DNA of 64,000 bases from Escherichia coli (GCF_030384885.1 NZ_CP128615.1), one strand, 5' to 3'. Shown: positions 42,063 to 58,933, counted from the first letter of the stretch. Numbers and translations are program-made. The notes: a model not told the origin generated them from the sequence alone.

Positions 42063-42168
42063 ATATCAAGCGACTTCTCCTATCCCCTGGGAACACATCA
42101 ATCTTACCGGAGAATATCGTTGGCCAAAGCCTTAGCGTAGGATTTCGCCCTCTCCCGCAAACGACCCC

Positions 42169-43070
42169 ATAGCCTCCGCAACCTGACCATCGTAGTCACG
42201 CAGCGTCAGTGAACCCCCGAACAGCTGTTTTACCCGGTACATCGCCGTTTCCGCTATCGAGCGACGGTTGTAATCTGTTGTCCATTTCCACCGCGCATTA
42301 CTCCCGGTCATTCGCTGATTAGCCACTGCACGGTTACGGTCTGCATATTCACCGGGCCAGTAACCCGCACCTTTTCGGGGAGGGATAAGCGCGCTGATTT
42401 TCTTACGCCGCAGTTCATCGTGACAGAGCCGGGTGTCGTAAGCGCCGTCTGCCGATGCTGCCCTGATTTTTCTGTGAGTCTGCCGGATAAGACCCGGGAA
42501 GGCTTCTGAGTCCGTCACATTGTTCAGCGACAGGTCTGCACAGATGATTTCATGTGTGTTGCTGTCAACTGCCAGATGCAACTTTCGCCATATACGACGG
42601 CGTTCCTGGCCATGCTTTTTGACTTTCCACTCGCCTTCACCAAAGACCTTCAGCCCGGTGGAATCAATCACCAGATGCGCGATTTCACCCCGGGTGAACG
42701 TTTTGAAACTGACGTTAACCGACTTTGCCCGCCTGCTGACACAGCTGTAATCCGGGCAGCGTAGCGGAACGTTCATCAGAGAAAAAATGGAATCAATAAA
42801 GCCCTGCGCAGCGCGCAGGGTCAGCCTGAATACGCGTTTAATGACCAGCACAGTCGTGATGGCAAGGTCAGAATAGCGCTGAGGTCTGCCTCGTGAAGAA
42901 GGTGTTGCTGACTCATACCAGGCCTGAATAGCTTCATCATCCAGCCAGAAAGTTATGGAGCCACGGTTGATGAGGGCTTTATTGTAGGTGGGCCAGTTGG
43001 TTATTTTGAACTTTTGCTTTGCCACGGAACGGTCTGCGTTGTCGGGAAGATGCGTGATCTGATCCTTCAA
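42169..43070 (-). pseudogene. IS903 transposase gene disrupted by Tn5393 (last ~22 codons displaced to 35392-35463)
   Basis: ORF identical in type to 44181..45149 until ...DGQVAEAM, then runs into the Tn5393 inverted repeat. Confidence 0.85.
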
Positions 43071-43406
43071 CTCAGCAAAAGTTCGATTTATTCAACAAAG
43101 CCCATTCAGTCCTCAATTTGTGCATTTTTTAAACGAAAAAAGGGTGTCTAATACGGTGAAATCATAGTATTACCAAAGTAATAAATAAAAAGTTATTTAA
43201 ATCAGTAATTTAGATTTGATTTGTAATACCTGGGTAATACCGCAGCATGGCTAAATTTTGTTTTTTTTCTTTTAAATCAGTGCGATAGCGTGATTTATCA
43301 CGCTGCGTTAGGTGTATAGCAGGTTAAGGGATAAAAAATCATCTTTTTTTGGTAGGGCGATCTCCGTAGGTTAAGGGGCATTTGGCTAAAAAGCGTCCTA
43401 TTCTTT

Positions 43407-43430
43407 GATGGTCATGCTTGCATGACCATC
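43407..43430. repeat. perfect 24-bp palindrome GATGGTCATGC-TT-GCATGACCATC
   Basis: 11-bp perfect arms immediately upstream of the 11-bp repeat clusters. Confidence 0.8.
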
Positions 43431-43440
43431 TGAGCAACCA

Positions 43441-43592
43441 AAAACTACAGATAAACTACAGATAAACTACAAAAAACGTTTTGCCTTAGTGTTGTAAGAC
43501 TACAAATAGACTACAATAAAACTACAAATAAACTACAAAAAACGTGACAGACTACAAATAGACTACAATAAAACTACAGATAAACTACAAAA
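43441..43592 (+). repeat. eleven 11-bp-phased direct repeats (A/G)ACTACA(A/G)AT(A), in clusters of 3+4+4; centromere/operator-like
   Basis: AAACTACAGAT AAACTACAGAT AAACTACAAAA ... AGACTACAAAT AGACTACAATA AAACTACAAAT AAACTACAAAA ... (repeated). Confidence 0.8.
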
Positions 43593-43597
43593 CTCGA

Positions 43598-43626
43598 TTG
43601 ACCCCTTCTTACGAGTGTTGTAGAGT
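43598..43626 (+). promoter_or_regulatory. sigma70-like promoter TTGACC-17-TAGAGT
   Basis: Directly follows the last repeat cluster, 25 nt before the GGAGGGGG RBS of the small ORF. Confidence 0.5.
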
Positions 43627-43650
43627 CATTTTCATACAACGGAGGGGGTT

Positions 43651-43830
43651 ATGAATAAACCAGCAGATCTGAAACCCCGCAACTTATCGGCTGCTGTCAG
43701 ATTGCGCCTAAATGAAATCGAGAACTGGCTGGACAGAGGGCTAACGCGGCATGAAATTGCTGAAATCCTCGACAGCGAATACAGCTTTTCGGTAACAGCC
43801 AAAGGGCTTGAGATGGATGGCACTGTATAG
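43651..43830 (+). CDS. small (59 aa) putative DNA-binding protein (StbA/ParR-like role suspected)
   Basis: Strong RBS; MNKPADLKPRNLSAAVRLRLNEIENWLDRGLTRHEIAEILD... (HTH-like). Not in the ORF track (<60 aa). Confidence 0.5.
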   Translation: MNKPADLKPRNLSAAVRLRLNEIENWLDRGLTRHEIAEILDSEYSFSVTAKGLEMDGTV

Positions 43831-44041
43831 AACGCGGCAAAACCGAAAAAATGTATTGCACAATACGCATGATAAGAGTAGCGCGAAGGGTGCAGCGGAA
43901 AGTGTATTGCACAATACACAACCGTCTGAGCCTGAAGTGCAGGAAAGTAAAAAAGCAGAGAGTCCCGGCATTATTGATAAAGAATTCTTCAAGAAAATCG
44001 GTGAGAATTTCGACCCTAAGAAGTTCAACAAAAAATTCTGA
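43817..44041 (+). CDS. small Lys-rich ORF overlapping the previous one (or its frameshifted C-terminal half)
   Basis: Ends 8 nt before the next ATG, whose GAGGTG RBS overlaps this ORF's stop. Contains two copies of GTATTG-CA-CAATAC. Confidence 0.35.
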   Translation: MALYRTRQNRKNVLHNTHDKSSAKGAAESVLHNTQPSEPEVQESKKAESPGIIDKEFFKKIGENFDPKKFNKKF

Positions 44042-44049
44042 GGTGATTT

Positions 44050-44124
44050 ATGAAAGTAGCGGTAATTAATTACAGTGGCAGTGTTCGTAAAACCTTAATT
44101 TCATCTTACCTGTTAGCCCCGCGC
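44050..44124 (+). pseudogene. first 25 codons of a ParA/StbB-like P-loop ATPase, cut by IS903
   Basis: MKVAVINYSGSVRKTLISSYLLAPR (deviant Walker-A-like position), then the IS903 inverted repeat. Confidence 0.45.
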
Positions 44125-45181
44125 GGCTTTGTTGAATAAATCAGATTTCGGGTAAGTCTCCCCCGTAGCGGGTTGTGTTTTCAGGCAATACGCACGCTTT
44201 CAGGCATACCTGCTTTCGTCATTTTGTTCAGCGCTCGTACCAGGGCCATAGCCTCTGCAACCTGACCATCGTAGTCACGCAGTGTCAGTGAACCTCCGAA
44301 CAGCTGTTTTACCCGGTACATCGCCGTTTCCGCTATCGAGCGACGGTTGTAATCTGTTGTCCATTTCCACCGCGCATTACTCCCGGTCAGCCGCTGATTC
44401 GCAACAGCACGGTTACGGTCTGCATATTCACCGGGCCAGTAACCCGCGCCTTTTCGGGGCGGGATAAGCGCGCTGATTTTCTTACGCCGCAGTTCATCGT
44501 GACAGAGTTGGGTGTCGTAAGCGCCGTCTGCCGATGCTGCCCTGATTTTTCTGTGAGTCTGCCGGATAAGACCCGGGAAGGCTTCTGAGTCCGTCACATT
44601 GTTCAGCGACAGGTTTGCACAGATGATTTCATGTGTGTTGCTGTCAACTGCCAGATGCAACTTTCGCCATATACGACGGCGTTCCTGGCCATGCTTTTTG
44701 ACTTTCCATTCGCCTTCACCAAAGACCTTCAGCCCGGTGGAATCAATCACCAGATGCGCGATTTCACCCCGGGTGAACGTTTTGAAACTGACATTAACCG
44801 ACTTTGCGCGCTTGCTGACACTGGTGTAATCCGGGCAGCGCAACGGAACATTCATCAGTGTAAAAATGGAATCAATAAAACCCTGTGCAGCCCGCAGGGT
44901 CAACCTGAACACGCGTTTAATGACCAGAACGGTGGTGATGGCGAGATCAGAATAGCGCTGAGGTCTTCCCCGTGATGAAGGCGTTGCCGACTCATACCAG
45001 GCCTGAATAGCTTCATCATCCAGCCAGAAAGTTATGGAGCCACGGTTGATGAGGGCTTTATTGTAGGTGGGCCAGTTGGTTATTTTGAACTTTTGCTTTG
45101 CCACGGAATGGTCTGCGTTGTCGGGAAGATGCGTGATCTGATCCTTCAACTCAGCAAAAGTTCGATTTATTCAACAAAGCC
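44125..45181 (-). mobile_element. IS903-like element, complete (1057 bp)
   Basis: Both inverted repeats present; same orientation as the split copy; no target duplication. Confidence 0.9.
44181..45149 (-). CDS. IS903/IS5-family transposase
   Basis: 322-aa ORF, near-identical to 23519..24487. Confidence 0.9.
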   Translation of the reverse strand: MKDQITHLPDNADHSVAKQKFKITNWPTYNKALINRGSITFWLDDEAIQAWYESATPSSRGRPQRYSDLAITTVLVIKRVFRLTLRAAQGFIDSIFTLMNVPLRCPDYTSVSKRAKSVNVSFKTFTRGEIAHLVIDSTGLKVFGEGEWKVKKHGQERRRIWRKLHLAVDSNTHEIICANLSLNNVTDSEAFPGLIRQTHRKIRAASADGAYDTQLCHDELRRKKISALIPPRKGAGYWPGEYADRNRAVANQRLTGSNARWKWTTDYNRRSIAETAMYRVKQLFGGSLTLRDYDGQVAEAMALVRALNKMTKAGMPESVRIA

Positions 45182-45672
45182 GTCTGTGTTGTAAAATGGC
45201 GCCGAAAGCCCGGCGTAGCCGGTTGCCGGGCTATAAATTCTGCCACCCTACCCCCTGCCCTGATTAGCCTTAACTCGCGAACAGCAATGAAGAAGTCAAA
45301 GTAATCCCTTTTAACCCCGGTGAGCGGGCTTTACGGCGTTTACGACGTAAAGGGCGTGATTTCCGGGGCCTAAGCGGCGGCAGCTTGCTGCTGACGCTTA
45401 GGGGGATGTTCATCAACTATTTCAGCGACACCAGGGAACTTAACACGGTAGCTGCAAAGCCCTAATCCCGCTCACCGCCACGCAGCTGCCGTACGTCCCC
45501 CACGGGGGTGCGCAGTGCTGCGCGCGGGAACGGCGGCCCGTCTGCGGGACGCGGCGCCGTACTGCGCGTTAGCGGCCGCACGCGGCCGGTTACGGGGGAC
45601 ACTCCGCCATACGACCAGCGACCCGCTGAGCTGCACAATCCACAGATAACACAAGCTACATACATGTCGATA

Positions 45673-46246
45673 TGGGAATCGGCCCACCTTGCCGGGCGCC
45701 GGTGCCGTGTGGAAATCCGCCCACCTTGCCGCGCGCCGGTGCCGTGTGGGAATCCGCCCACCTTGCCGCGCGCCGGTGCCGTGTGGGAATCCGCCCACCT
45801 TGCCGGGCGCCGGTGCTGTGTGGAAATCCGCCCACCTTACCGGGCGCCGGTGCTGTGTGGAAATCCGCCCATCTTGCCGGGCGCCGGTGCCGTGTGGGAA
45901 TCCGCCCACCTTACCGGGCGCCGGTGCCGTGTGGGAATCCGCCCACCTTACCGGGCGCCGGTGCCGTGTGGGAATCCGCCCACCTTACCGGGCGCCGGTG
46001 CTGTGTGGAAATCCGCCCACCTTGCCGCGCGCCGGTGCCGTGTGGGAATCCGCCCACCTTGCCGCGCGCCGGTGCCGTGTGGGAATCCGCCCACCTTGCC
46101 GGGCGCCGGTGCTGTGTGGAAATCCGCCCACCTTACCGGGCGCCGGTGCTGTGTGGAAATCCGCCCATCTTGCCGGGCGCCGGTGCCGTGTGGGAATCCG
46201 CCCACCTTACCGGGCGCCGGTGCTGTGTGGAAATCCGCCCATCTTC
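45673..46246 (+). repeat. 15 full + 1 partial tandem 37-bp iterons TGG(G/A)AATCCGCCCACCTT(G/A)CCG(C/G)GCGCCGGTGC(C/T)GTG
   Basis: Units start every 37 bp from 45673 to 46228. Units 2-6 are repeated as units 10-14 (296-bp higher-order duplication). Confidence 0.9.
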
Positions 46247-46292
46247 ATGACAAAAATTTGTCAAATGACAGGCTCATGTGTGCTGATTTATG

Positions 46293-46595
46293 TCAGACGG
46301 GATTTTGCTTATCAATTATTGAGAACAGAAATTTTCCTGAATCATCAATACTATACTTAGCAAGTAAAGGTGTTTTCTCATTTATCTGCTTGAGTGCAGG
46401 ATCAAGGAAAGATCGTTTCAACTCTGCCAAGTTCTTCTGCTGGGATTCCGGTAAGACGAAACGGTCATTTAACCAAGCATGAGTAGTAACCCATAAGCCT
46501 GAAGATTTGAATTGAGCAAGACTTTCATAAAGGCGGATCGTCCGGGGATTTCGAAGACTGCCACAATCGCGGAGCGAGTAGGTGGTGAACTGGTT
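46293..46595 (-). pseudogene. 3' third of a second Rep_3/RepE-like initiator gene, truncated by IS1
   Basis: Minus-strand NQFTTYSLRDCGSLRNPRTIRLYESLAQFKSSGLWVTTHAWLNDRFVLPESQQKNLAELKRSFLDPALKQINEKTPL... aligns with the C-terminus of the Rep at 54177-54899. Confidence 0.8.
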
Positions 46596-46610
46596 GGTAA
46601 TGACTCCAAC

Positions 46611-47114
46611 TTACTGATAGTGTTTTATGTTCAGATAATGCCCGATGACTTTGTCATGCAGCGCCACCGATTTTGAGAACGACAGTGACTTCCTGCCCAG
46701 CCTTGCCAGATGCTGCCTCAGATTCTGGTTATGCCGCTCAATTCGCTGCGTATATCGCTTGCTGATAACGTGCAGTTCTCCCTTCAGGCGGGATTCATAA
46801 AGCGGCCAGCCATCCGTCATCCATACCACGACCTCAAAGGCCGACAGCAGGCCCGGAAGACGCTCCAGCGTGGCCAGAGTACGCTCACCAAAGACGCGTG
46901 CCACCACCGTCCTGCACATCCTGCCATAGGCGTAAAATAACCAGCGCTGACGTGATTTAGCCCCGACGTAGCCCCACTGTTCGTCCATTTCCGCGCAGAC
47001 AATGACGTCACTGCCCGGTTGTATGCGTGAGGTTACCGACTGCGGTCTGAGTTTTTTAAGTGACGTAAAATCGTGTTGAGGCCAACGCCCATAATGCGGG
47101 CGGTTGCCCGGCAT
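46611..47114 (-). CDS. insB: IS1 InsB frame
   Basis: 167-aa ORF. Confidence 0.85.
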
Positions 47115-47308
47115 CCAACGCCATTCATGGCCATATCAATGATTTTCTGGTGCGTACCGGGCTGAGAGGCGGTGTAAGTGAACTGTAGCTGCCATGTTTT
47201 ACGGCAGTGAGAGCAGAGATAGCGCTGATGTCCGGCAGTACTTTTACCGTTACGCACCACGCCTTCAGTAGCTGAGCAGGAGGGACAACTGATGGAGATG
47301 GAAGCCAC
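47033..47308 (-). CDS. insA: IS1 InsA
   Basis: [37 protein letters not shown]... Confidence 0.85.
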
Positions 47309-47363
47309 TGGAGCACCTCAAAGACACCATCGTACACTAAATCAGTAAGTTGGCACCATTATC

Positions 47364-49311
47364 CGGCAGGCGATCTGGATTATCGTCACGCTGTTAAATA
47401 TGTCGCGGTAGGGATACCCGTTACCGGATACCCCCCGCACAGATCCCGGCGTGCGCGATTTACGCACCGGGCTCCTGCCTCGGGTGTCTGGCGGTGAACC
47501 GCTCCACAGGCCATGGATGAAGAACCCGAACCCTTGGTAGCCATGCGGCTGCCAGTTTGTTTGCTTTCGTCCAGGTCGTATCATCCTTCTGGCTCCTGCG
47601 CCTGAGCGCCCGGCGCCAGAGGTTTGTTACGTGTGTCCTGAACTTCTGCATGGTGGGGAAGTTGCCCGGTACCGAGTGATAGTTCAGGTATCCCTGAACC
47701 ACTCTCCTGAGCCATTTTCCCTGTTCGGGGATTGAGTAATGCCAGCGCCTTCGCAGACCGTCTTTGATGGCTTTCAGAGTTGCCGTCATCCGATCCCGGC
47801 GGGTCTTTCGTATCAGCATGAACCTGCCGTTGCGATCTTTCCCGCTGATGTGCGTGAACCCGAGGAAGTTGAACGTTTCTGGTTTGCCTTTTCCCCTGAT
47901 GGCACGGTTTTCGGCAGCGAAGCGGCCGAACTCCATCAGACGGGTTTTCTCCGGGTGAACCGTGAGTCCGAACTCCCTCAGTCTGCGCTGCATGGCTATA
48001 CGGAAGCGCCGGGCATCGTATCGTTTGTCGAACCCGATGACGATGTCATCGGCGTATCTGACCATTACCACATTGCCTGTGGCATAGCGACGTCGCCACT
48101 GATGCGCCCACAGATCGAAGACGTAGTGGAGGTATATGTTTGCCAGCAGCGGTGAGATGACCGCACCCTGTGGGGTGCCTTCCTCCGTTGCTCGCCATTG
48201 ACCCTCCTCCAACGTCCCGGCTGTGAGCCACTTACGTATGAGCCTGATTACGCTCCGGTCGCCGATCCGATGCTCTGTGAACCTGATCAGCCATTCGTGG
48301 CTCACCCTGTCGAAGAACTGACTGATGTCGGCATCCAGTACCCAGTTTACGTTAGTGCGTACCAGCCCTGTGGCCAGTGCGTCCAGTGCATCGTGCTGGC
48401 TTCGCCCGGGTCTGAACCCGTATGAGAACCCCATAAAGTCGTTTTCATAGACTGCGTTCAGGATTTTCACCAGCGCATACTGGACGATCTTGTCCTCCAG
48501 CGAGGCGATGCCGAGCGGGCGTTGTTTTCCATCCGCTTTTGGGATGTAGTGACGCCTGCCGGGCTGCGCCCTGTAGCTGCCCTAATGTAGCCTCCGGTGC
48601 AGATCTGTTATGTTGTTCTTCATGTTTCCGGCGTAGTCCATCCACCTGATGCCATCCACTCCGGCGGCCGCTTTCCTGCTCAGGGAGAGGAATGCGGCTT
48701 CCAGTGCTTCGACTGTCAGCAGGTGGAACAATGCTGTAAACCGTTCTTTCTTCCGCTGCTTCGCAGCTTCCCGCACGCGTGACAGCCTCTGTGACATGCT
48801 TTCCCGGCTCTGTGTCCGGCGCATGTGTGGCTGTTCCGCGTTCCCCTTGGCCCCGCTCCTTCGCTCCACTGACTCCGCTCCTTTCGGGTTGTTCGCCTGC
48901 TTCGCCGCTACTATGAGCGAGTCCGACTTCTCCTCTCCGTACATCACCGGCTATGACTCCTCGTCTTCCCGGTGCGGGCCGTCTCCGACACTGGCAGATG
49001 GTCAGAGGGGAGATCTCCCGGTTCCCGCGTAGAGATCGTATTGACATGCCAGGGTCTCAGACCCCGCCGGGTCCATGTGGCACTCGCAGTATCGCACCCT
49101 ATGATGTTGCCTTCCGTTAACAGTACAACGTCGGCACCCGGTAATTTAATATACATTTCGTGGCTCAATGGCTGGCCTGTCAACACCCCTGTCAACGCTT
49201 CGCCCCATACCTCGCGGTATGCAACGCATGACTCGGGGACCTTGTGGATTGCTGGTCCTTCAATGGTCGGGGACTTTCACCCCTTGATCTCTACCGGTCT
49301 CCCGGTGAACA
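47364..49311 (-). mobile_element. bacterial group II intron (ends not resolved; 3' side abuts IS1)
   Basis: RT/maturase ORF in domain IV. Domain V-like 34-nt hairpin with GUAA tetraloop and 2-nt bulge at 47405-47438. About 360 nt of structured 5' RNA (GGTGAAAGTCC etc.). Confidence 0.7.
47460..48947 (-). pseudogene. group II intron reverse transcriptase/maturase with one in-frame TAG (codon 122 of 496)
   Basis: ORFs 48582..48947 and 47460..48470 are in the same frame (1488 nt), joined as ...DLHRRLH*GSYRAQPGRRHYIPKADGKQRPLG...; YADD motif; no endonuclease domain. Confidence 0.8.
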
Positions 49312-49327
49312 CTGTATGTATAACCAG
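49312..49327. promoter_or_regulatory. LexA (SOS) box CTGTATGTATAACCAG
   Basis: CTG-N10-CAG 25 nt upstream of the umuD-like start; candidate -10 TAAAAT follows. Confidence 0.7.
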
Positions 49328-49352
49328 TAAAATTAGAGTGTCAGGAGGAAAG

Positions 49353-49784
49353 ATGAAACTACAACTTTTCAGCACCGGGAAAGAACTCCCGCCACAGGCC
49401 CATCCATTGTTTGCCGATCTGGCCAGCTGCGGTTTTCCCAGCCCTGCTGCTGACTATGTCGAGTCCGATCTGGATCTCCATGATTACTGCATACGGCATC
49501 CGAGCGCGACGTACTACCTGCGTGCCAGCGGAGACAGCATGGCCGACGGCAGTCTGTACAATGGCGATCTGCTGGTTGTGGACAGTGCTGAAAAGCCGCG
49601 GCACGGCGATATCGTTGTCGCCAGCATGCAGGGGGAGTTTACGGTGAAACGGCTTCTGCTGACGCCGCGACTGACGCTGCAGCCCATGAATGCCTCCTGG
49701 TCGCCGATTTATCCTGATCCCGACGAGCTGGATATCTTTGGCGTCGTCACGCATATCATCCACCGCCCGAGGGAGATGTACTGA
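49353..49784 (+). CDS. umuD: UmuD/MucA-like S24 peptidase (Pol V accessory subunit)
   Basis: AGGAGG RBS; 143 aa; cleavage site ...[12 protein letters not shown], Ser (ASGDSM) and Lys (VKRL). The listed 270-aa ORF is an upstream extension. Confidence 0.9.
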
Positions 49785-51055
49785 TGTTTGCCCTGGCCGA
49801 TGTGAACAGCTTCTATGCCAGCTGTGAACGTGTTTTCCGCCCGGATTTGAAAGGAAAGCCGATAGTCGTCCTGAGCAACAACGACGGGAATGTAATCGCT
49901 CGCAGTGCCGAGGCGAAGCCCTGGATCAAAATGGAAACTCCGTGGTTTCAGATAAAAAACGAAAGATACCCGGAAAAAATATATGCGTTTTCAAGTAACT
50001 ATGAACTTTATGCCTCGATGTTGGCGCGCGTGATGAACAGCCTGGAGGAACTGGCCCCCAGAGTGGAACAGTATTCAATTGATGAGATGTTCCTCGATTT
50101 GACCGGCGTGGAGCACTGTATGGAGCTTGAGGACTTCGGCCGGCAGCTGCGTCAGCACGTGTATGACTGTACCCACCTGACCATTGGCGTGGGCGCCGGA
50201 CCAACGAAGACCCTCGCAAAATCAGCCCAGTGGGCCTCAAAAGAGTGGAAACAGTTTCGTGGCGTACTTGCTCTGACCAGGGGAAATCCGCAGAGAACGC
50301 GGAAACTGCTTTCACTGCAGCCGGTTGAAGAAATCTGGGGGGTGGGTAACCGTATTGCACGCAAGCTGAATGTACTGGGCATTAAGACCGCGCTCGATCT
50401 CGCCCTGACGAACCCGGCCTTCATCCGCAAAAATTTTTCTGTGGTCCTTGAGCGAACGGTACGGGAACTGAACGGGGAAAGCTGCCTTTCGCTTGAGGAA
50501 GCCCCTCCGACGAAACAGCAAATTGTCTGCAGCCGCAGTTTTGGCGTGAAGATCACGGAGTACGAGTCACTCCGTCAGGCTATCTGTCAGCACGCAGAGC
50601 GGGCCTCTGAAAAACTGCGTAAAGAGCACCAGTATTGCCGGCATATTTCCGTTTTCATCAAAACGTCTCCGTTCGCCATTAAAGAGCCTTACTACGGCAA
50701 CGTGGCTACGGAAAAACTTCTTACACCCACTCAGGACACCAGGGACATCATTGCAGCCGCTACAACGGCTCTGGAGCGTATCTGGAGGGATGGGCACCGG
50801 TATGCCAAAGCCGGAGTTATGCTGAATGACTTCACCGGCTCCGGCGTTTCGCAGCTGCAGCTGTTCGACGAACGCCCGCCACGCCCTTACAGTGCTGAGC
50901 TGATGAAGGTTCTGGACGGGATCAACAACTCAGGGCTGGGTAAAGTATGGTTTGCGGGGCGGGGTATTGCCCCGGAATGGCAGATGAAACGGGAGATGCT
51001 TTCTCCTGCTTATACGACACGATGGTCAGATATTCCTTCAGCGAAACTGGCGTAA
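49784..51055 (+). CDS. umuC: UmuC/MucB-like Y-family DNA polymerase
   Basis: 423 aa [35 protein letters not shown]...; ATGA-type overlap with umuD. Confidence 0.9.
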
Positions 51056-51060
51056 AACTT

Positions 51061-51140
51061 TGGCGATTTCACCTTGAAATTCTCAGCCTAAACTGCCTAA
51101 TTACAATAAGTTAGATGTGAAATCGCCATGGCGAAATTAT
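51061..51140 (-). promoter_or_regulatory. P1-type parS centromere (box A ATTTCAC / box B TCGCCA flanking an IHF-like core)
   Basis: Reverse complement reads TCGCCATGGCGATTTCACATCTAACTTA...GAATTTCAAGGTGAAATCGCCA, very close to P1 parS as I recall it; directly downstream of parB. Confidence 0.8.
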
Positions 51141-52114
51141 TGACTCAAATTTCTGTCAAGGACCTCGTTGATAGCCTTGTCCAGTTCATCCTGAATCACT
51201 TTTGACATACGGCTAAACTCATAAGTCAGCGTACGCCCTTTCACACGCTTACGCGCGAACTTGTCCTTTTCTTCAAAAGACCAGAGTGGGGAAACCACTG
51301 ACTTTTCCTTGGGAGATGGATCTATCAATGCCTGAGATGCCTGAGAAATCAGCTTCAGTATACTGGCTTTCTGTTCGTCTTCTGGTCGCTCGCCTTCACT
51401 CAAAATTGCATCGAGCTGAGCTGATACAGACTGAATGAGTTCTTCAGGCGTTAATCCCTTTTCACTGAGTTTTTCATTAACTTCTAAAAGAAGTTTATAG
51501 TCACTAAACGATAGCTCCGACTGAACCGGGAACAGAGAAATCAAGTCTTGCGGTACGGCCGCCGCCTGCAGCGCCCTGGTAACTTTAGCTTGAGATAACC
51601 CCTCCAGTTCAGCAATTTCCTTTTGATTAAATCCGGACTCTTTAAGAGCGATCAATCTCAGGCCAATCTCCCGAAGATTATGTTCTTTAGCTGTCTGGAT
51701 ATCTTTAGCCAGTTGGCGAGCTTCATCAGCTGATAAATGCTCTTCGGTAACCATTACATCAAGGCCTGTACGGACAAAAATTGCTGAGGCTCGCCGTCTT
51801 GAACCATCCAGTATCTCAATCCTTTCACTTTGCTTAATACCAATACAGGGAAAGAACTGCTGAAACTTAATCGTCTGGATAATGGATTTCAGGGATTCCC
51901 TGGTCAGTGCAAGTTGATCTCTTCCGTTGTTTTCCTGGTTTACGAAGGTCTTACTTTCAACTTCAGATGCAGGCACCCGAACAAACCTGAACGTTACCTT
52001 CCTGCCGGTTTTTAAGGTAAATACCTGGCTTCTACCGGTGTCCGTCATTTCCGCAATTGACGCCTGGGTATTTAACTGTCTGCCGATGGTTTTTCTTTTC
52101 TCATTCGACATCAC
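51137..52114 (-). CDS. parB: ParB (type Ia, P1/F-like centromere-binding protein)
   Basis: 325 aa; ParB-box-like ILDGSRRR; HTH QKEIAELEGLSQAKVTRAL; overlaps the parA stop. Confidence 0.85.
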   Translation of the reverse strand: MMSNEKRKTIGRQLNTQASIAEMTDTGRSQVFTLKTGRKVTFRFVRVPASEVESKTFVNQENNGRDQLALTRESLKSIIQTIKFQQFFPCIGIKQSERIEILDGSRRRASAIFVRTGLDVMVTEEHLSADEARQLAKDIQTAKEHNLREIGLRLIALKESGFNQKEIAELEGLSQAKVTRALQAAAVPQDLISLFPVQSELSFSDYKLLLEVNEKLSEKGLTPEELIQSVSAQLDAILSEGERPEDEQKASILKLISQASQALIDPSPKEKSVVSPLWSFEEKDKFARKRVKGRTLTYEFSRMSKVIQDELDKAINEVLDRNLSQ

Positions 52115-53316
52115 ATACCTCCGTTAGTACGAATGAACTCGATGCGATCAAAGACTGCCTTCGCAAAGTCTTCCGCTGCTGATTTTGCGCTTTTTAGTGC
52201 CTCTGTACTTCCATCATAGGTTGCTGGATTTGCTGAAATAACTGTGTCAAAAGTCTCCCCACAACGTTCGAAACCATCCAGTCTTGGCAGAACCATGTCT
52301 AGCATATCGGCACCGAAAACCTCTTTGGCCTGACTATGGCAAATTTTGTGATCAGACTTGTTCAGGATCTTGGACATGAAGCCGACATTACCGATGAGAT
52401 TGCAGGTGTGCCCATCCATTTCGATGGAATCTATGAGGGCAGGGAGGCTGGCCACAAACTTCAGGGAAGAATGAAAATCAACCGTCGCCGGTGGAAGAGG
52501 GGTCAACATCAGGTCTGCCGCCCCAATGCAGTTTTTCAGGAACGCATCAAGGTGAGGACCACTATCAAGGAAAATAAAGTCGTAGTCATGCTGGAGCTTG
52601 TCGATAATGTTCTCTTTAAGCACCGCATGAATATTTTTCCCTGGCAGATGTTCTTCACACAATCCCTTCCAGCCTTCAGCAAGGAATGCATCGTCAATGG
52701 AAGCGGGGATTACATCAACACCAGGGATAATAGACGGTACTATAAAATCGGAAAGTAATTCTTCACGAGACACGTTCTGGAGCATGGCCTGAGCAGCCGT
52801 ATTTTCAACCAAGCCCACTGAATTCTCATGGCTCAGGAACATTGTCAGAGATGCCTGCGGATCGAAATCGATGGCCAGAATACGCAGGTCTTCGAACAGA
52901 AGCTGAGGATGAGCTCGAAAAGCATGTGATAATGAAGCGGTAGAAACTGTCTTGGAACCACCACCTTTAAGATTACATACAAAAATCGTAAAGGCTTTAT
53001 CGAAGCGATCCCTGTACTTCGGTACTTTACGATGGTTATACAGATCGATGACATTCTGAATCGTCATCGCGTATTTCATCGTATTACCAGAAGGTTTCTT
53101 TTTAAAAATGTAGCCACCGGCTTCCATTTCGGACACAGCATACTCAACACTGCCTTTACTGAGCTTAGGCAGCTTATACAGAGCGGCTTTGCTGTATTCC
53201 TGATAGAACTCGGTAAGCTTCAATTCCTCTTTTTGCTGTCGGATACTTTCGCTCAAAGATGTCAGAAGCTTACCTGCACGTGTAGCGACTTTCCGTAACT
53301 GCTCAATATTGTCCAT
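52111..53316 (-). CDS. parA: ParA (type Ia Walker ATPase with N-terminal HTH extension)
   Basis: 401 aa; deviant Walker A CNLKGGGSKTVST; size typical of P1 ParA / F SopA. Confidence 0.9.
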   Translation of the reverse strand: MDNIEQLRKVATRAGKLLTSLSESIRQQKEELKLTEFYQEYSKAALYKLPKLSKGSVEYAVSEMEAGGYIFKKKPSGNTMKYAMTIQNVIDLYNHRKVPKYRDRFDKAFTIFVCNLKGGGSKTVSTASLSHAFRAHPQLLFEDLRILAIDFDPQASLTMFLSHENSVGLVENTAAQAMLQNVSREELLSDFIVPSIIPGVDVIPASIDDAFLAEGWKGLCEEHLPGKNIHAVLKENIIDKLQHDYDFIFLDSGPHLDAFLKNCIGAADLMLTPLPPATVDFHSSLKFVASLPALIDSIEMDGHTCNLIGNVGFMSKILNKSDHKICHSQAKEVFGADMLDMVLPRLDGFERCGETFDTVISANPATYDGSTEALKSAKSAAEDFAKAVFDRIEFIRTNGGM

Positions 53317-53325
53317 TTATCACCT

Positions 53326-53363
53326 CATGACGTTTTTTGTCATTTTGAACAAAAAGTGTCATG
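53326..53363. promoter_or_regulatory. imperfect 38-bp palindrome upstream of parA (candidate par operator)
   Basis: CATGACGTTTTTTGTCATTTTGAACAAAAAGTGTCATG. Confidence 0.5.
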
Positions 53364-53593
53364 TTGCAAGAAAAAAATCATATTGTTTTGATTTCGCTCT
53401 CAACAGAAGGGGGATGAAGCTCGACGGGCGTGCTACTAAATCACACTGCAGCAACACGCAGACGCACTTTTGACCATCAACAGCAACTCATACAAAAGGG
53501 CTTTGAGAAAGGTATTCAACTTGCAAGACAGGAGAGTCATTCAGAAGGATTCTGATTTTAGTTACGACCAGTGCAATGCTGAGCCTTATGTAT

Positions 53594-53648
53594 CAGCGCT
53601 CGCCGCAGCCATGTAACCGAGCGTAGCGAGCGAACTGGCGAGGAAGCG
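53594..53648 (-). other. ColE1 n'-type primosome-assembly-site-like element (ssi/pas)
   Basis: Reverse complement CGCTTCCTCGCCAGTTCGCTCGCTACGCTCGGTTACATGGCTGCGGCGAGCGCTG resembles pBR322 CGCTTCCTCGCTCACTGACTCGCTGCGCTCGGTCGTTCGGCTGCGGCGAGCGG (from memory). Confidence 0.45.
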
Positions 53649-53710
53649 AAGAGGAACCGTTCCGGCAGATAGCTCTTACGCTCAGCACAAGAAGAGTTTT
53701 CCATCCTCTG

Positions 53711-54120
53711 TGGGAAACAGGTCAACTTTAATGGACGCTCCGGACTATGGGAAACAGGTCAACTTCGCGGACGGCCCGGACTATGGGAAACAGGTCAACT
53801 TCACGGGCGGCCGGGAGTGTGGGGAACAGGTCAACTTCGCGGACGGCCCGGATTATGGGAAACAGGTCAACTTCGCGGGCGGCCGGGACTGTGGGAAACA
53901 GGTCAACTTTGCAGACGGCCCGGACTGTGGGAAACAGGTCAACTTCGCGGGCGGCCGGGAGTGTGGGGAACAGGTCAACTTCGCGGACGGCCCGGACTAA
54001 GGGAAACAGGTCAGCTTCTCGGACGGCCCGGACTATGGGAAACAGGTCAACTTCTCGGACGGTCGGGAGTGTGGGAAACAGGTCAAGTTAGGCAAGCACT
54101 ATGGGAAACACAGCAAGTTC
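53711..54120 (+). repeat. 11 + 1 degenerate iterons TATGGGAAACAGGTCAACTT at 36-bp spacing (copy-control array downstream of rep)
   Basis: TGGG starts at 53711, 53748, 53784 and then every 36 bp to 54072, plus a degenerate unit at 54102. GC-rich spacers alternate between two versions (72-bp super-period). Confidence 0.9.
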
Positions 54121-54176
54121 AGTATCCCCCCATATGTCAGCAACAAACTAAGGGGGGAGGAAATAAAAATTACAGA

Positions 54177-54899
54177 CTATTGTTTTTTATCAAGAAAATT
54201 AAACAGCAAGCGACCATCTTCTTCAGTGGTATATGTTACCTTTAATGGCGTCTTCTCATTAATTTTCTTCAGAGCAGGTTCCAGGAAGGTACGCTTCATT
54301 TCAGCAATATTGTTTTTCTGCGAGGCAGGGAGCATAAACCTTTCACATAACCAGTCATGTGTGGTGATCCAGACACCAGTGCTCCGGAACTGACACAGGC
54401 TTTCATAAAGCCGGATGACACGAACACTATTAAGCTGGCCACAGTCATAGAGAGAATAGGTAGTGAACTGGGAGGTTAAGCCGACCAGGAATGGCATGAC
54501 CTTGTAGTTAAATTCAATCTGCCAGGAACCCCGGCCTCGCTTCATTCCTGCTTCAGCCAGCCACGGACGTTTAACTTCTTCAAACTCACCTTCTTTTGGA
54601 TAAAAGGTAACCGTTGATTCGCCCAGAGCATTTACCCCAGCCTTCACATCACGACTGGCGACAGACGTAGCGACATTGAAGTATTTGACGTAATCGGAAA
54701 CGCTGATTTTGAAGAGCGGCAATACGTCAGAGTCATCTTCCTGGCTGTCATTAAAATAGGCCTGCATGAGGCATAACCACAGCACACGTTTTGCCTGAAG
54801 AGGCAGGTAATATGCAGCTTCGGTCAATTCGTTAGATTGCTTTATACTGGCGCGTTTTTTAAACGTTTTAGTAGCTGGCAAGAGTGCTTGAGTATCCAT
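54177..54899 (-). CDS. Rep_3/RepE-like iteron-binding replication initiator
   Basis: MDTQALLPATKTFKKRASIKQSNELTEAAYYLPLQAKRVLWLCL...RLYESLCQFRSTG... aligns with F RepE. The upstream ATG at 55043 lies inside an ori iteron and past DnaA boxes, so 54899 is preferred. Confidence 0.85.
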   Translation of the reverse strand: MDTQALLPATKTFKKRASIKQSNELTEAAYYLPLQAKRVLWLCLMQAYFNDSQEDDSDVLPLFKISVSDYVKYFNVATSVASRDVKAGVNALGESTVTFYPKEGEFEEVKRPWLAEAGMKRGRGSWQIEFNYKVMPFLVGLTSQFTTYSLYDCGQLNSVRVIRLYESLCQFRSTGVWITTHDWLCERFMLPASQKNNIAEMKRTFLEPALKKINEKTPLKVTYTTEEDGRLLFNFLDKKQ

Positions 54900-54972
54900 T
54901 TCAATGCCTATGGGTAAATTTTTACCCACCCATAATGACAGTGAAAACAGAAATTGCAAGCTATCGCGATAC

Positions 54973-55250
54973 TTATCCACCGGAAAAATCTGCACTTTAT
55001 CCACAAGTGGATAATTGAGAACTGAACTTGACCTCTTTCCCATAGCTTGTTGATGCGTATCCCATAGCTTGTTGACACAAAACCCACTGATACGTGATTA
55101 ATTTCCCATATTATGTTTACCAGTTGCCCATACAGGCCCCCTCTCAGGCCGCACTGTACGCGGCTTTCAGGCTCCCTAAAAGATGTAAAATAAAGAAAAA
55201 GAATAAAAAAGTACTTTATAAAAATATGCCCGTGGATAAGTGGATAACCC
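54973..55250. promoter_or_regulatory. oriV region: DnaA boxes, iterons, AT-rich stretch
   Basis: TTATCCACC (54973), perfect TTATCCACA (54997-55005), inverted GTGGATAAT (55007), five iterons, AT-rich 55175-55225, and GTGGATAAGTGGATAA (two boxes, about 55231-55246). Confidence 0.75.
55023..55132 (-). repeat. five origin iterons at exact 22-bp spacing (inverted relative to the 36-bp array)
   Basis: CCCA(T/C)(A/T) cores at 55039, 55061, 55083, 55105 and 55127. The first unit, AACTTGACCTCTTTCCCATA, matches the reverse complement of the array iteron at 17 of 20 positions. Confidence 0.8.
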
Positions 55251-55313
55251 CGAGGGGAGGTGATTTTTCAGGCATTGAGCGTAAGCAGAATTTATAAGTT
55301 TTGTTCCCTGGTG

Positions 55314-55366
55314 CTTCCTCGCTCACTCGGGGCTTCGCCCTGTCGCTCGACTGCGGCGAGCACTGC
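55314..55366 (+). other. second ColE1 n'-pas-like element
   Basis: GCTTCCTCGCTCACTCGGGGCTTCGCCCTGTCGCTCGACTGCGGCGAGCACTG. Confidence 0.45.
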
Positions 55367-55590
55367 TGGCTCGATCATATCCGTGGCCGGAAGATACTAC
55401 TCCTCCCCCGAGTCGCTCTCCAGAGCCGGCTACAGCGAGACAACCCGCACGAAGATTTCTATCGTCCCTGCAGACATATTCGAATCGTTTTTATTAACCC
55501 TGGCTTCCGTCGTGACAGAACACTACGTCCTGTAAAAGGGGGACTAAGGCCCCTGAATCACACACCTGAATAATGCGGAGTTTTACGATA

Positions 55591-55677
55591 ATGTCATTGC
55601 TGGAAACTTTCCTGACCGCTTCTCAGGGGGCAACAATCCTGTTCCTTGCCATGCTGATCTACTGGCAAAAGCGATAA
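55591..55677 (+). CDS. 28-aa hydrophobic peptide ORF (speculative)
   Basis: GGAG 10 nt upstream; MSLLETFLTASQGATILFLAMLIYWQKR (one TM-like helix). Confidence 0.25.
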   Translation: MSLLETFLTASQGATILFLAMLIYWQKR

Positions 55678-55805
55678 ATCCAAGCGGGCTGGCCTTTGGC
55701 CAGCTTCGCTGTATAAGGGGAAAAATGCGGCATATCCAGACATTTCACTAGGCAATTTGAATTCAGATATCTATGCTTGGGATCCGGTCAACAGGAGGTA
55801 ACAAG

Positions 55806-56063
55806 ATGAAACTTGAAACTATACAGATAGATAATACCGTAAGGAGTGGTCTTAATTCTTTCACTGACGGGGTGATTATTCGTGATACAAAGGTATTGAT
55901 CACGCTCAATCTCCCGGATGGACAGAAAACCACTATTGAGGGGGAATGGCGGCATATGTCGGACGCCAACAGGTTGTCAGAACGTATTACGATGCTTCAG
56001 CATGCGATCTATGAGCAGTATGAGGAATACAGAGCAGATATTCCCGTCAGCTGGTCCAGATAA
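55806..56063 (+). CDS. hypothetical protein (85 aa)
   Basis: CAGGAGG RBS 6 nt upstream of the ATG; no recognisable motif. Confidence 0.5.
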   Translation: MKLETIQIDNTVRSGLNSFTDGVIIRDTKVLITLNLPDGQKTTIEGEWRHMSDANRLSERITMLQHAIYEQYEEYRADIPVSWSR

Positions 56064-56120
56064 CGTCTGACAGACCTCCCCGGCGAGCAGGACGTTCGCC
56101 AGCATCATTCTCCTAAGTAC

Positions 56121-56899
56121 TTAAATATTCCCTTTCAGCATGGCTACCGCATCCGCTTCGGGCATCTGAAACTGAACTCGATGCCGCGCAGCAACATCAA
56201 GTGCGAACACCTTCGTATAGACTTCCGTCGAGCTAATCGATTTGTGGCCCATCAGGCTCTGCAAAACCTTCAGTGGTATGCCGGCATACAGCACATATGC
56301 ATCGCGTAGGAGTGGCGGAACGTATGCGGGGTGACCGGCACCGAGAATGTCACCCCGTCGACGGCGGCCGCTTCAACCGCTTCGCCAATCCAGGTCCGTA
56401 CTGTCCGGTCGGTGATGTCCCAGATGCGGGCTTTCTCTGTTCTGCCGGTACGCTTGTTGCGTCTTTCCAGCGGAATTTTCAGGGTGGCCACCATCATCTG
56501 CAGCTGGCTGACGTAGTGGTGATCGGAAAGCGGAACCAGACGATGAGCCTGGCTACCGGCGGGAGCTCGGCCGGCTGTCCTGGCCGCTTTTTCGGTGCGC
56601 TGCTTAAGCGTGGCCAGCTGCACGAACGGATACGGTGGCACCAGCGAAAAATCCCCCCGGGTCAGCGCCAGCGCCTCGTTGATACGTGCGCCGGTGTTCC
56701 AGAGGGTTGCCAGCAGCATCTTGCGGTGCAAATCGGGCACATAATGGAGCAGGGCGCTGACTTCCGGTGCCAGCAGGTATTTCGGTAGTTCATCTTGAAC
56801 GAGCGCCATCTGGCGCAGGGCCAGCGCGGCGGGATAGTCAATGGCCACCGGCATTTGCGCCGGCTGCTGCGGGTGAGAATATGATAAGAGGCCGCTCAT
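56121..56899 (-). pseudogene. tyrosine site-specific recombinase (ResD/XerD-like) with a 2-nt frameshift before the catalytic Tyr region
   Basis: Frame 1: ...TGARINEAL...HTFRHSYAMHM, then a stop. The +2 frame continues LYAGIPLKVLQSLMGHKSISSTEVYTKVFALD...GNI*. Extra TG near 56291-56294 (CATATGTGCTGTATGCC). Confidence 0.75.
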
Positions 56900-57639
56900 T
56901 GGTTTGACATTCCATCAGGTATCACTAATTGATTCCACTCCCTGTTGCGGGTAGCTTCAGCAGCGCGCAGGGCTCTTTCGCGCCTCCAGACTTTACGAAA
57001 CACGGAAACTGCAGACCATTCATCATGACCTGTAAGACGTGTTTCGGGCATCCCGGTTGCCTTGCGCAGACGGACGGCAAGAATGACAGCGTTGATGCCC
57101 AAGCGCGTGAACTGATACTGCCGTTCCCTGAAATAGTCCTTATGCCAAGGAGGGTCGGAGTATTCGGCGGCATATGCAATTGCCCTGTGGGCCTCATCCT
57201 GGAGCACCGGCAGTTCACGGATGCGATACATAAGACGTGGCTCTAAAGTCCGCCAGTCACCGGAGACATCGATCAGATTCAGTTCAGGGTAATTCGTGAC
57301 AGCTTTTCTCTCAGGCTGGGGGGCATCATCATCCTGGCCGTCATCCGTCACAACCCGGAAACAACCCTCAGCATACCGTTCAAGCATGAATACCAACTCG
57401 GTGGCAATGTAATGCAGTTCCTTTTTCATTTTATCTTCTGACGCCTGTCTCTCACGCTTAAGCGTGAAATAATGTGTCAGCCAGATGCCAGTGAGTGTTA
57501 TACCCCCAGTAAGCAGGCCAGTGATAAGCCCGGTTGCCACGTTTCCCCAGATCCCCGCCCCTTGATTAATCAGCTGTACGGAAACCGGATGGGATGTCGC
57601 AGCAACTATACTCTCAGTTGCGGCCTGTATATCAGTCAT
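56896..57639 (-). CDS. hypothetical membrane-anchored protein (247 aa)
   Basis: N-terminal Gly-rich TM segment GIWGNVATGLITGLLTGGITLTGIWL; ATGA overlap with the recombinase start. Confidence 0.6.
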   Translation of the reverse strand: MTDIQAATESIVAATSHPVSVQLINQGAGIWGNVATGLITGLLTGGITLTGIWLTHYFTLKRERQASEDKMKKELHYIATELVFMLERYAEGCFRVVTDDGQDDDAPQPERKAVTNYPELNLIDVSGDWRTLEPRLMYRIRELPVLQDEAHRAIAYAAEYSDPPWHKDYFRERQYQFTRLGINAVILAVRLRKATGMPETRLTGHDEWSAVSVFRKVWRRERALRAAEATRNREWNQLVIPDGMSNQ

Positions 57640-57689
57640 TGATCATTTACCCCTTTATATTCCTGAGAAATCCCGCCCTCTGTCCGTAG

Positions 57690-58040
57690 TCAGCGGCCGG
57701 CAGCCAGCTCTTCAGCCAGTTTCACAAACCTTTTGTGCTCAGTCTGCAGGTAATGGCTGTAAATCCGGGCATCACGTTCTGTCAGTCCGGATGGATTGCC
57801 GGTGAAGTAACGTTGCAGCACCGCAATACAGTGATTGTAGGTATCGAGATCATATTCCCAGTTTCCCAGCTCACCGGCCGCATCCAGTTCCTGGCGAAAC
57901 TGCTCGTATTTACGGAGCAGAATGCCAAGACCTAATTCTGTTGCAGCATAAAGATTATTTTCTCCTGGCGCGGAAATCGCATTACGGATTTTTTCAAAAG
58001 CATAACTGAAATCATTTCTCTCATTGAATGCAGTAAACAT
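57690..58040 (-). CDS. hypothetical protein (116 aa)
   Basis: GAGGAAAGGAC RBS region; candidate extended -10 TGGTAAAAT and two GTGA-N3-TCAC palindromes upstream (58110-58150). Confidence 0.55.
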   Translation of the reverse strand: MFTAFNERNDFSYAFEKIRNAISAPGENNLYAATELGLGILLRKYEQFRQELDAAGELGNWEYDLDTYNHCIAVLQRYFTGNPSGLTERDARIYSHYLQTEHKRFVKLAEELAAGR

Positions 58041-58610
58041 GTCCTTTCCTCAGTTGAATAGTTAGCCGTGCAATTTTACCACACCTCAATCATCGTCAGA
58101 TGAGTGCCACTCTGTCGCGACAGTGACTTTCACGAGAGTGATTTTCACATACTAAAATAATAAGCAGCCATATAACAACGTAATTAAATTACCTGACGGC
58201 CGCTCTGGCCGGATCCGACTTTTATGTTATTCCACAGTTTCCGGAAGTGTACCACGCACACGGAATAACCACAGCGCCCTTTCAGGGTGGTGAGCGGCCG
58301 GTCACGGGGCAGGGGAGGGGCACAACATATATGGTCACTGACAGCTGGAAACACCGCTACATCTTGTGTTTCCGGGCCGCTGCGCGCCGGCGGGGCTGAA
58401 TCAGATCCGGAACTGGTGGTTTTCGGATCTGCGGTGGAGAAATGAGAAAACAGGATATGCGCAGCATATCCACATGCCACGCATCTGCATAGGGCAGACA
58501 TACGCATATGTCAGTCATCTGCATATGTTACACCTATACAGACCAGTCCGGCAGGCATATACTGCACATATGTACTCACACATCATGCATGATCAGCCGG
58601 AGGAACATCC

Positions 58611-58841
58611 ATGCGCACAGTTTCGATATTTAAAAACGGCAATAACCGCGCCATCCGTCTGCCCCGGGACCTGGATTTTGACGGCGTCAGCGAGCTGGAG
58701 ATCGTCCGGGAAGGGGACAGCATCATTCTGCGTCCCGTCCGGCCGACCTGGGGCTCGTTCGCGCAGCTGGACAGGGCCGATCCGGACTTTATGGCGGAGC
58801 GTGAGGATGTGGTCAGCGATGAAGGACGCTTTGAGCCATGA
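58611..58841 (+). CDS. vagC: second copy of the VagC antitoxin
   Basis: Protein identical to 2446..2676; at least one synonymous DNA difference (GAT to GAC). Confidence 0.9.
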   Translation: MRTVSIFKNGNNRAIRLPRDLDFDGVSELEIVREGDSIILRPVRPTWGSFAQLDRADPDFMAEREDVVSDEGRFEP

Positions 58842-58933
58842 AGAAAACCTGGATGCTCGACACTAACATCTGCTCGTTCATCATGCGCGAGCAGCCGGCA
58901 GCGGTGCTGAAGCGCCTGGAGCAGGCGGTGCTG
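58838..58933 (+). pseudogene. vagD: vagD truncated after 32 codons by the IS21-family remnant
   Basis: MKKTWMLDTNICSFIMREQPAAVLKRLEQAVL, then unrelated sequence. Confidence 0.85.

Follow-up and report, generated by a model that had tools for sequence, protein, structure and literature searches.

The stretch considered here, 64,000 nucleotides of Escherichia coli DNA (NZ_CP128615.1; the window), carries, besides an intact replicon, the truncated end of a second rep gene followed by a long array of 37-bp repeats. This raises the question of whether the piece is a decayed sister of the live replicon or came from elsewhere, and whether it still acts on any replicon. The preliminary description saw in it a dead Rep_3/iteron replicon fragment laid out, rep then array, like the live replicon, and this much was borne out. 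Very probably, 45182/45452-46595 is a non-replicating IncN1 remnant, the 'region N' of IncR plasmids, which was left by insertion sequences beside an IncR replicon and which, with no origin of its own, travels as a neutral passenger of IncR. The features are collected in Table 1.

Table 1. Remnant, boundaries and live IncR replicon in the window (window coordinates; an empty strand cell means no strand assigned)
Feature	Position	Strand	Remarks
IS903B (IS5 family), left remnant boundary	44125..45181	-	18-bp terminal inverted repeats 44125-44142 and 45164-45181; transposase ORF 44181-45149
Non-coding stretch	45182..45451		In a divergent IncN plasmid, continuous with the IncN flank; common to IncFII(K) plasmids
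GC-rich IncN backbone distal to the array	45452..45672		Aligns with pKC394 1502-1717 at 79-81%
Orphan IncN array	45673..46245	+	15.5 x 37-bp units; 16 18-bp cores; 8-unit internal duplication
Spacer, array to repA stop codon	46246..46292		47 bp, as in intact IncN plasmids
ΔrepA(IncN1)	46293..46595	-	Codons 140-239 plus stop; WH2 plus the last WH1 residues
IS1X3, truncates repA	46596..47363	-	768 bp; terminal repeats 46596-46613 and 47346-47361; insA/insB ORFs
Live IncR distal array	53711..54089	+	10.4 units x 36 bp; 11 cores TGGGAAACAGGTCAACTT
IncR repB	54177..55043	-	Pfam Rep3_N + Rep3_C; annotated as 288 aa
Probable IncR origin	55025..55247	-	DnaA boxes, AT-rich stretch, five iteron-like cores

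ΔrepA encodes 100 amino acids and a stop codon. It lacks a start codon, a promoter and the N-terminal 139 codons, with IS1X3 abutting codon 140. That it is the 3' fragment of a Rep_3 gene, alignable to the C-terminus of the intact Rep, had been claimed and was confirmed: the product matched the Pfam Rep3_C profile above its gathering score (E=6e-10) and was identical at 59/97 positions to the C-terminal end of the intact Rep in the window (E=6e-46). Only the end of Rep3_N is left, namely the last 25 WH1 residues, which scored 20.0 bits against a cutoff of 22.4 (PF01051 / PF21205), as fits a C-terminal fragment. The gene was also said to be cut by IS1, and the element indeed starts exactly at 46596, opening with GGTAATGACTCCAACTTA. 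In other records, the PGAP label for ΔrepA is a 'replication initiation protein' pseudogene, marked as incomplete.

The closest relatives of the fragment are IncN plasmids. ΔrepA and the 47-bp spacer (346 bp) are 98.6% identical at the DNA level to the repA of IncN plasmid pKC394 (NC_014231), and to many other records in which the gene is called 'replication initiation protein', and 99/100 residues of the encoded protein are identical to residues 140-239 of the pKC394 RepA. Plasmid pKC394 was typed as IncN, MOBF and MPF_T. The colinearity extends through the array: 46246-46595 corresponds to pKC394 767-418 at 98.6%, and the whole of 45673-46598 to pKC394 415-1338 at 96.3%. The 37-bp consensus of the array, TGGGAATCCGCCCACCTTGCCGGGCGCCGGTGCCGTG, is identical in the IncN plasmids p4171-1 and pCUVET19-1426.1 and occurs as its reverse complement in the pKC394 array. 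The remnant thus carries two IncN1 markers, an IncN1-type repA sequence and the consensus 37-bp array directly downstream of repA, and shares with the intact IncN1 replicon (pCU1/R46 type; pKC394) the repA 3' end, the spacer, the unit consensus and the orientation of the array. The backbone flank distal to the array aligns to pKC394 as well, although only at 79-81%.

These comparisons divide the earlier view that the remnant and the live replicon are diverged paralogues. The homology stands. IncN RepA and IncR RepB are 56% identical overall and 61% identical over the C-terminal 97 aa, and the two consensus cores match at 13/18 positions, a value recovered as claimed and reached by 9/500 shuffles. 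The IncN and IncR replicon families are homologous. Divergence within the molecule does not stand, since today's IncN1 plasmids carry a nearly identical sequence and the live replicon is IncR. To judge from its sequence, the fragment is a recent horizontal import from an IncN1 plasmid, acquired by recombination or by an IS-mediated rearrangement.

Tandem Repeats Finder reported the array at 45673-46245 with a period of 37, 15.5 copies, 93% matches and a score of 957, returning the consensus given above. In register, it consists of 15 full 37-bp units followed by a terminal 18-bp core, in agreement with the 15.5 repeats counted previously. The core reads TGG(G/A)AATCCGCCCA(C/T)CTT. Allowing up to three mismatches, 16 copies were found in the array, compared with 0.07 expected by chance in the whole window, and a single chance-level site was found outside it, at 14758. 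A higher-order duplication of 296 bp had also been noticed and is present: units 2-6 equal units 10-14 base for base, and self-identity reaches 97.8% at a shift of eight units (296 bp), compared with 91.5-94.1% at the other tested shifts. The variants GCTGTG-TGGAAA and GCCGTG-TGGGAA, described before as covarying, are indeed linked at 14/15 unit junctions (counted from the unit table). Their linkage fails, however, in the intact IncN array of pKC394, and it is therefore a trace of the duplication history; a constraint on the variants was rejected. Nor did the label 'decayed' hold for the array. Its units are 93% identical, close to the 95-96% of live IncN arrays, so that what is missing is repA and the origin side only.

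The number of repeats varies. Arrays of the IncN 37-bp type range from 8.5 to 45.5 copies across plasmids, live or orphan. A coding function of the repeats was considered, given that ORFs of 192-324 aa run across the array (45672-46250, 45508-46482 and others) and that records of the OW849432 type annotate a 'hypothetical protein' over it. This reading has next to no probability and was rejected. The period, 37, cannot be divided by 3, the lack of stop codons in the GC-rich unit suffices to explain why several frames stay open on both strands, RefSeq/PGAP places no annotation on the array, and repeat number varies freely among plasmids. Identical units are, moreover, given as the RepA-binding sites of IncN in the passage of PMC9412624 that cites Papp and Iyer 1995. 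The long ORFs in the GC-rich repeats, which extend over 45462-46482 on both strands ('hypothetical protein', e.g. in OW849432), are artefacts of the stop-free unit.

Both edges of the remnant are insertion sequences. The flanks of IS1X3, as matching records annotate the element, differ (GAACTGGTT versus CGGCAGGCG), with no target-site duplication, so the joint stems from an IS1-mediated rearrangement rather than from a simple insertion. The element on the other side, named IS903B in pEFER, likewise has unlike flanks and no 9-bp target-site duplication. As neither element is bordered by target-site duplications, the joints are attributed to IS-mediated rearrangement or deletion and not to insertion into an intact gene. 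We propose that rearrangements involving IS1X3 and IS903B left the IncN1 piece beside the retA end of the IncR backbone.

Between IS903B and the array, the sequence at 45452-45672 is ~91% identical to many IncN records. The longer interval 45183-45672 has 90% identity to IncN plasmid p4171-1, where it lies directly beside a 45.5-copy array, and 45182-45451 therefore probably belongs to the captured IncN-derived segment, to judge by this contiguity. The ~290 bp at 45182-45474 are 95.6% identical to a stretch of pCMC309MPCH_P1 located ~760 bp downstream of an IncFII(K) repA, an arrangement of large Klebsiella plasmids; 45182-45474 is a short module common to three replicon neighbourhoods. An Rfam scan of 45100-46700 with a permissive E-value retrieved no RNA family.

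The live replicon fits IncR in its repB, its 10.4-copy array of 36-bp units and the presence of parAB, umuDC and retA, in agreement with PMC9412624. In 1,555 PLSDB records, its repB is matched with at least 99% identity, and one record names the product 'Replication initiation protein IncR'. The near-identical relatives pEFER, OW849432 and p101EVA-1 were typed as IncR, and the IncR-typed relatives share the order IS903B, array, Δrep, IS1X3, (retA), umuDC, parAB, repB. IncR backbone and region N together span ~42167-58933 in the window. The live array was called by Tandem Repeats Finder at 53711-54086 (period 36, 10.4 copies) and also has 10.4 copies in pCUVET19-1426.1 and pST1023 (PMC9412624). 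Its cores are conserved while its spacers have diverged (86% matches), and the diverged spacers may stabilise the length of the array.

The annotated start of repB (55043) falls inside the last of the five 22-bp-spaced origin iterons, an inverted pair of DnaA boxes (54997-55014) lies after it, and homology to IncN RepA begins only at residue 59. Probably, the true start is M49 at 54899, giving a protein of 240 aa, and the propagated annotation is 48 codons too long.

The remnant has been described before. Oliva et al. (2022) defined 'region N' as IS903B, IS1X3, an IncN repA remnant and 37-bp iterons, with 24.3 copies in pST1023, and counted 74 sequences in which it is joined to the IncR backbone (PMC9412624). 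The same structure was reported in pLSP plasmids (PMC11047700). The structure is thus already known, and it is common. A probe of 400 bp across the IS1X3/ΔrepA joint was matched in full by 676 of the 72,556 PLSDB plasmids; among 5,426 complete E. coli genomes, 157 gave such a match. IncR repB is present in 1,573 PLSDB records, so that the remnant occurs in at most ~43% of them, assuming that every junction record also bears repB (which was checked on samples). Considering that the same junction recurs in all these records and that neither IS of the window has a target-site duplication, a single origin followed by spread is indicated. Every copy of the remnant would have been inherited from one ancestral event, after which the repeat number would drift by recombination or slippage.

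Region N of pST1023, the pLSP plasmids and pEFER has the same elements in the same order as the window, with an identical IS1X3/ΔrepA junction followed by retA, and the order is also the same in OW849432, pTA7-1 and pCUVET19-1426.1. Differences are confined to the number of repeats (15.5 here, 24.3 in pST1023 and 17.5 in pCUVET19-1426.1) and to whatever lies beyond IS903B. In all, orphan arrays of 8.5, 9.5, 10.5, 15.5, 17.5 or 24.3 copies were found in IncR plasmids, those of PMC9412624 included. No second copy of an IncN rep was found in the first 50 kb of pTA7-1, where the remnant stands alone. Analogous segments in IncF33 and IncHI2 plasmids (PMC6052338, PMC6288184) likewise combine a truncated IncN repA with 37-bp iterons as a passenger under another replicon. 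These differ in that IS26 cuts elsewhere, the repeats number 5 or 30-31 and the flanks are gshB and CUP6-resP, which marks them as independent events.

Among the matches listed, one junction lies in a chromosome record of 4.8 Mb (NZ_CP010143.1, strain D4, position 4742163). Strains 2017-19-1CC and 15.03CC carry the junction on two plasmids each (NZ_AP027856.1/NZ_AP027857.1 and NZ_AP027472.1/NZ_AP027473.1), also among the matches listed.

Whether the remnant could replicate depends on what an intact replicon of this kind contains. In pKC394, five copies of the 18-bp core also found in the array lie 85-190 bp upstream of repA, spaced at exactly 22 bp, with a DnaA-like box before them. This origin module occupies 52910-53123, its cores being on the plus strand (53018-53123) and those of the array on the minus strand (804-1482). 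In the probable IncR origin of the window, the DnaA boxes number two (55231-55247) and the AT-rich stretch (84% AT) covers 55175-55225; five iteron-like cores are set exactly 22 bp apart, with minus-strand starts at 55130, 55108, 55086, 55064 and 55042. In both plasmids, the origin cores are inverted relative to the distal array. IncN and IncR therefore follow a common plan: a DnaA box, an AT-rich stretch, five 22-bp-spaced iterons, rep and a long array of 36/37-bp units. The same arrangement is found in P1 (oriR-repA-incA) and F (incB-repE-incC). The distal array would accordingly be an auxiliary control locus rather than an origin, corresponding in position to P1 incA or F incC.

With these loci it shares initiator-binding repeats that lie downstream of rep, apart from and inverted to the origin iterons. 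In P1 and F, incA and incC are dispensable for initiation, lower the copy number and cause incompatibility in trans. The IncN and IncR arrays differ from them in their longer units, 36-37 bp against ~19-22 bp, each composed of an 18-bp core and a GC-rich spacer, and in having many more copies. In the orphan array, unlike in P1 incA or F incC, the cognate initiator is in addition absent from the molecule.

Plasmid pKC394 has repA codons 1-139, the promoter and an upstream module made up of five iterons and a DnaA-like box, all of them missing from the remnant, which thus cannot be expected to initiate replication by itself. The complete 239-aa repA with its promoter is reduced to codons 140-239, and since the promoter and the first 139 codons are missing, the remnant has no initiator-coding capacity and, as read from its sequence, makes no initiator. 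In the window, the five 22-bp-spaced iterons with a DnaA box are absent from the remnant, IncN cores being confined to the 37-bp array apart from the site at 14758. Because the remnant kept no more than the distal array and the final 100 codons, we infer that it has no origin of its own, on the strength of this architecture and of the analogy with P1 and F, the IncN positions being taken from our analysis of the pKC394 sequence. Plasmid pCU1 is reported, in work cited by PMC7826253, to have three clustered origins (oriB, oriS and oriV), and given these, an origin within or beside the array stays formally conceivable.

The array may nevertheless be more than inert DNA for another plasmid. If an IncN replicon were present in the cell, its RepA would be expected to bind the 16 intact cores, and the bound array would then add to the titration or handcuffing of that replicon. 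Krishnan and Iyer, in 1990, are said to have found the 37-bp repeats of pCU1 dispensable for replication, their deletion raising the copy number, and to have seen incompatibility in trans. The predicted binding follows from the literature, as far as it is summarised in PMC9412624 and PMC6052338, in which the repeats are RepA-binding and copy-control sites; the latter, with reference to Krishnan and Iyer 1990 and Papp and Iyer 1995, ties the IncN iterons to 'replication and copy number control'. Thus, the array probably binds IncN RepA in trans, and an effect on IncN RepA, and hence on IncN incompatibility, is plausible.

For the resident IncR replicon, the remnant is most likely a neutral passenger. 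The contrary proposal, that the orphan array cross-binds IncR RepB and, by titrating it or by handcuffing to the origin or array of IncR, adjusts copy number or incompatibility in its own plasmid, would build on the homology of the two initiators, on the agreement of the cores at both ends (TGGGAA...CTT) and on the same position of both arrays relative to rep. We consider it very unlikely. The five mismatches between the cores are central in the site, and at none of its positions has the orphan core come closer to that of IncR. More than half of the plasmids bearing IncR repB lack the remnant, whose copy number varies about threefold on near-identical IncR backbones, whereas the IncR array has 10.4 copies in the three plasmids examined. 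IncR and IncN are, furthermore, separate incompatibility groups that occur together on one molecule (PMC6353027). In pCUVET19-1426.1, an intact IncN repA with 30.5 repeats, a 17.5-copy orphan array and an IncR replicon coexist on one conjugative molecule. Taken together, the mismatches, the absence from most IncR plasmids, the variable copies, the separate groups and this coexistence make an effect on IncR RepB unlikely.

Retention of the remnant in up to ~43% of IncR-bearing records could be due to selection rather than hitch-hiking. The array would then be kept as a 'fossil' incompatibility determinant that acts in trans on IncN RepA, destabilising and displacing single-replicon IncN plasmids and, in IncN-IncR cointegrates, holding down or silencing the IncN replicon while IncR controls. 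The 16 orphan cores are all intact, with the same sequence as live IncN cores, and the remnant is widespread. When cloned, auxiliary iteron arrays of P1, F and related plasmids cause incompatibility. This precedent speaks for the proposal, as does the copy control by IncN iterons mentioned in PMC6052338. Even so, we regard it as unlikely that the remnant was selected in this way. The live IncN replicon of pCUVET19-1426.1, with 30.5 repeats, coexists with the 17.5-copy orphan array (PMC12403796), and in several E. coli strains two separate plasmids both bear an uninterrupted IncN repA (among the matches listed), so that additional arrays are evidently tolerated. The array has no conserved length, the remnant is missing from many IncR plasmids, and neutral linkage to the backbone predicts the same pattern of retention. 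An uninterrupted IncN repA is present in 294/5,426 E. coli genomes and the junction in 157, from which ~8.5 joint occurrences are expected under independence. One confirmed joint case in cis, with the remnant and an intact IncN repA, is pCUVET19-1426.1.

A benefit through recombination can also be imagined, in which the ~1.1-1.4 kb of IncN sequence serve as a homology patch for RecA-dependent cointegrates with conjugative IncN plasmids and so allow transfer of the non-conjugative IncR plasmid. IncR plasmids have no relaxase or transfer genes (PMC9412624), identity between the remnant and IncN plasmids reaches 96-98.6% across ~0.9 kb, and IncN-IncR cointegrates are on record (PMC12403796, PMC10446048, PMC6353027). 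In the one cointegrate examined, however, both IncN arrays are kept in separate places, although recombination between the arrays would merge them; its authors ascribed the fusion to IS26, and no junction of an array-mediated fusion was seen in it. This role is extremely unlikely.

There is no hint of a new mechanism in this locus, and its practical value is modest. The 303 bp of IncN repA can yield partial matches in IncN typing, by which an IncR plasmid may be mis-scored as IncN or as IncN+IncR. The 37-bp array is a recombination-prone marker of variable length and hampers short-read assembly. The IS1X3/ΔrepA junction marks the common descent of a large IncR lineage with clinically important resistance genes. 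If the orphan array does destabilise IncN plasmids, it would be a small case of plasmid interference via left-over control sites.

Elsewhere in the window, 14001-39000 contains a BREX-1 defence system (pglX, brxC, pglZ and brxL), tet(A) and Tn3-family elements, according to the annotation of near-identical plasmids. A stbA-like gene at 43651-44041 has its frame shifted by a duplicated GATG (4 bp, 43812-43815) when compared with the copy annotated as StbA, still intact, in pTA7-1 and pCUVET19-1426.1. Just upstream of it are about nine 11-bp repeats (43442-43591), which may be binding sites for the stbA-like product.
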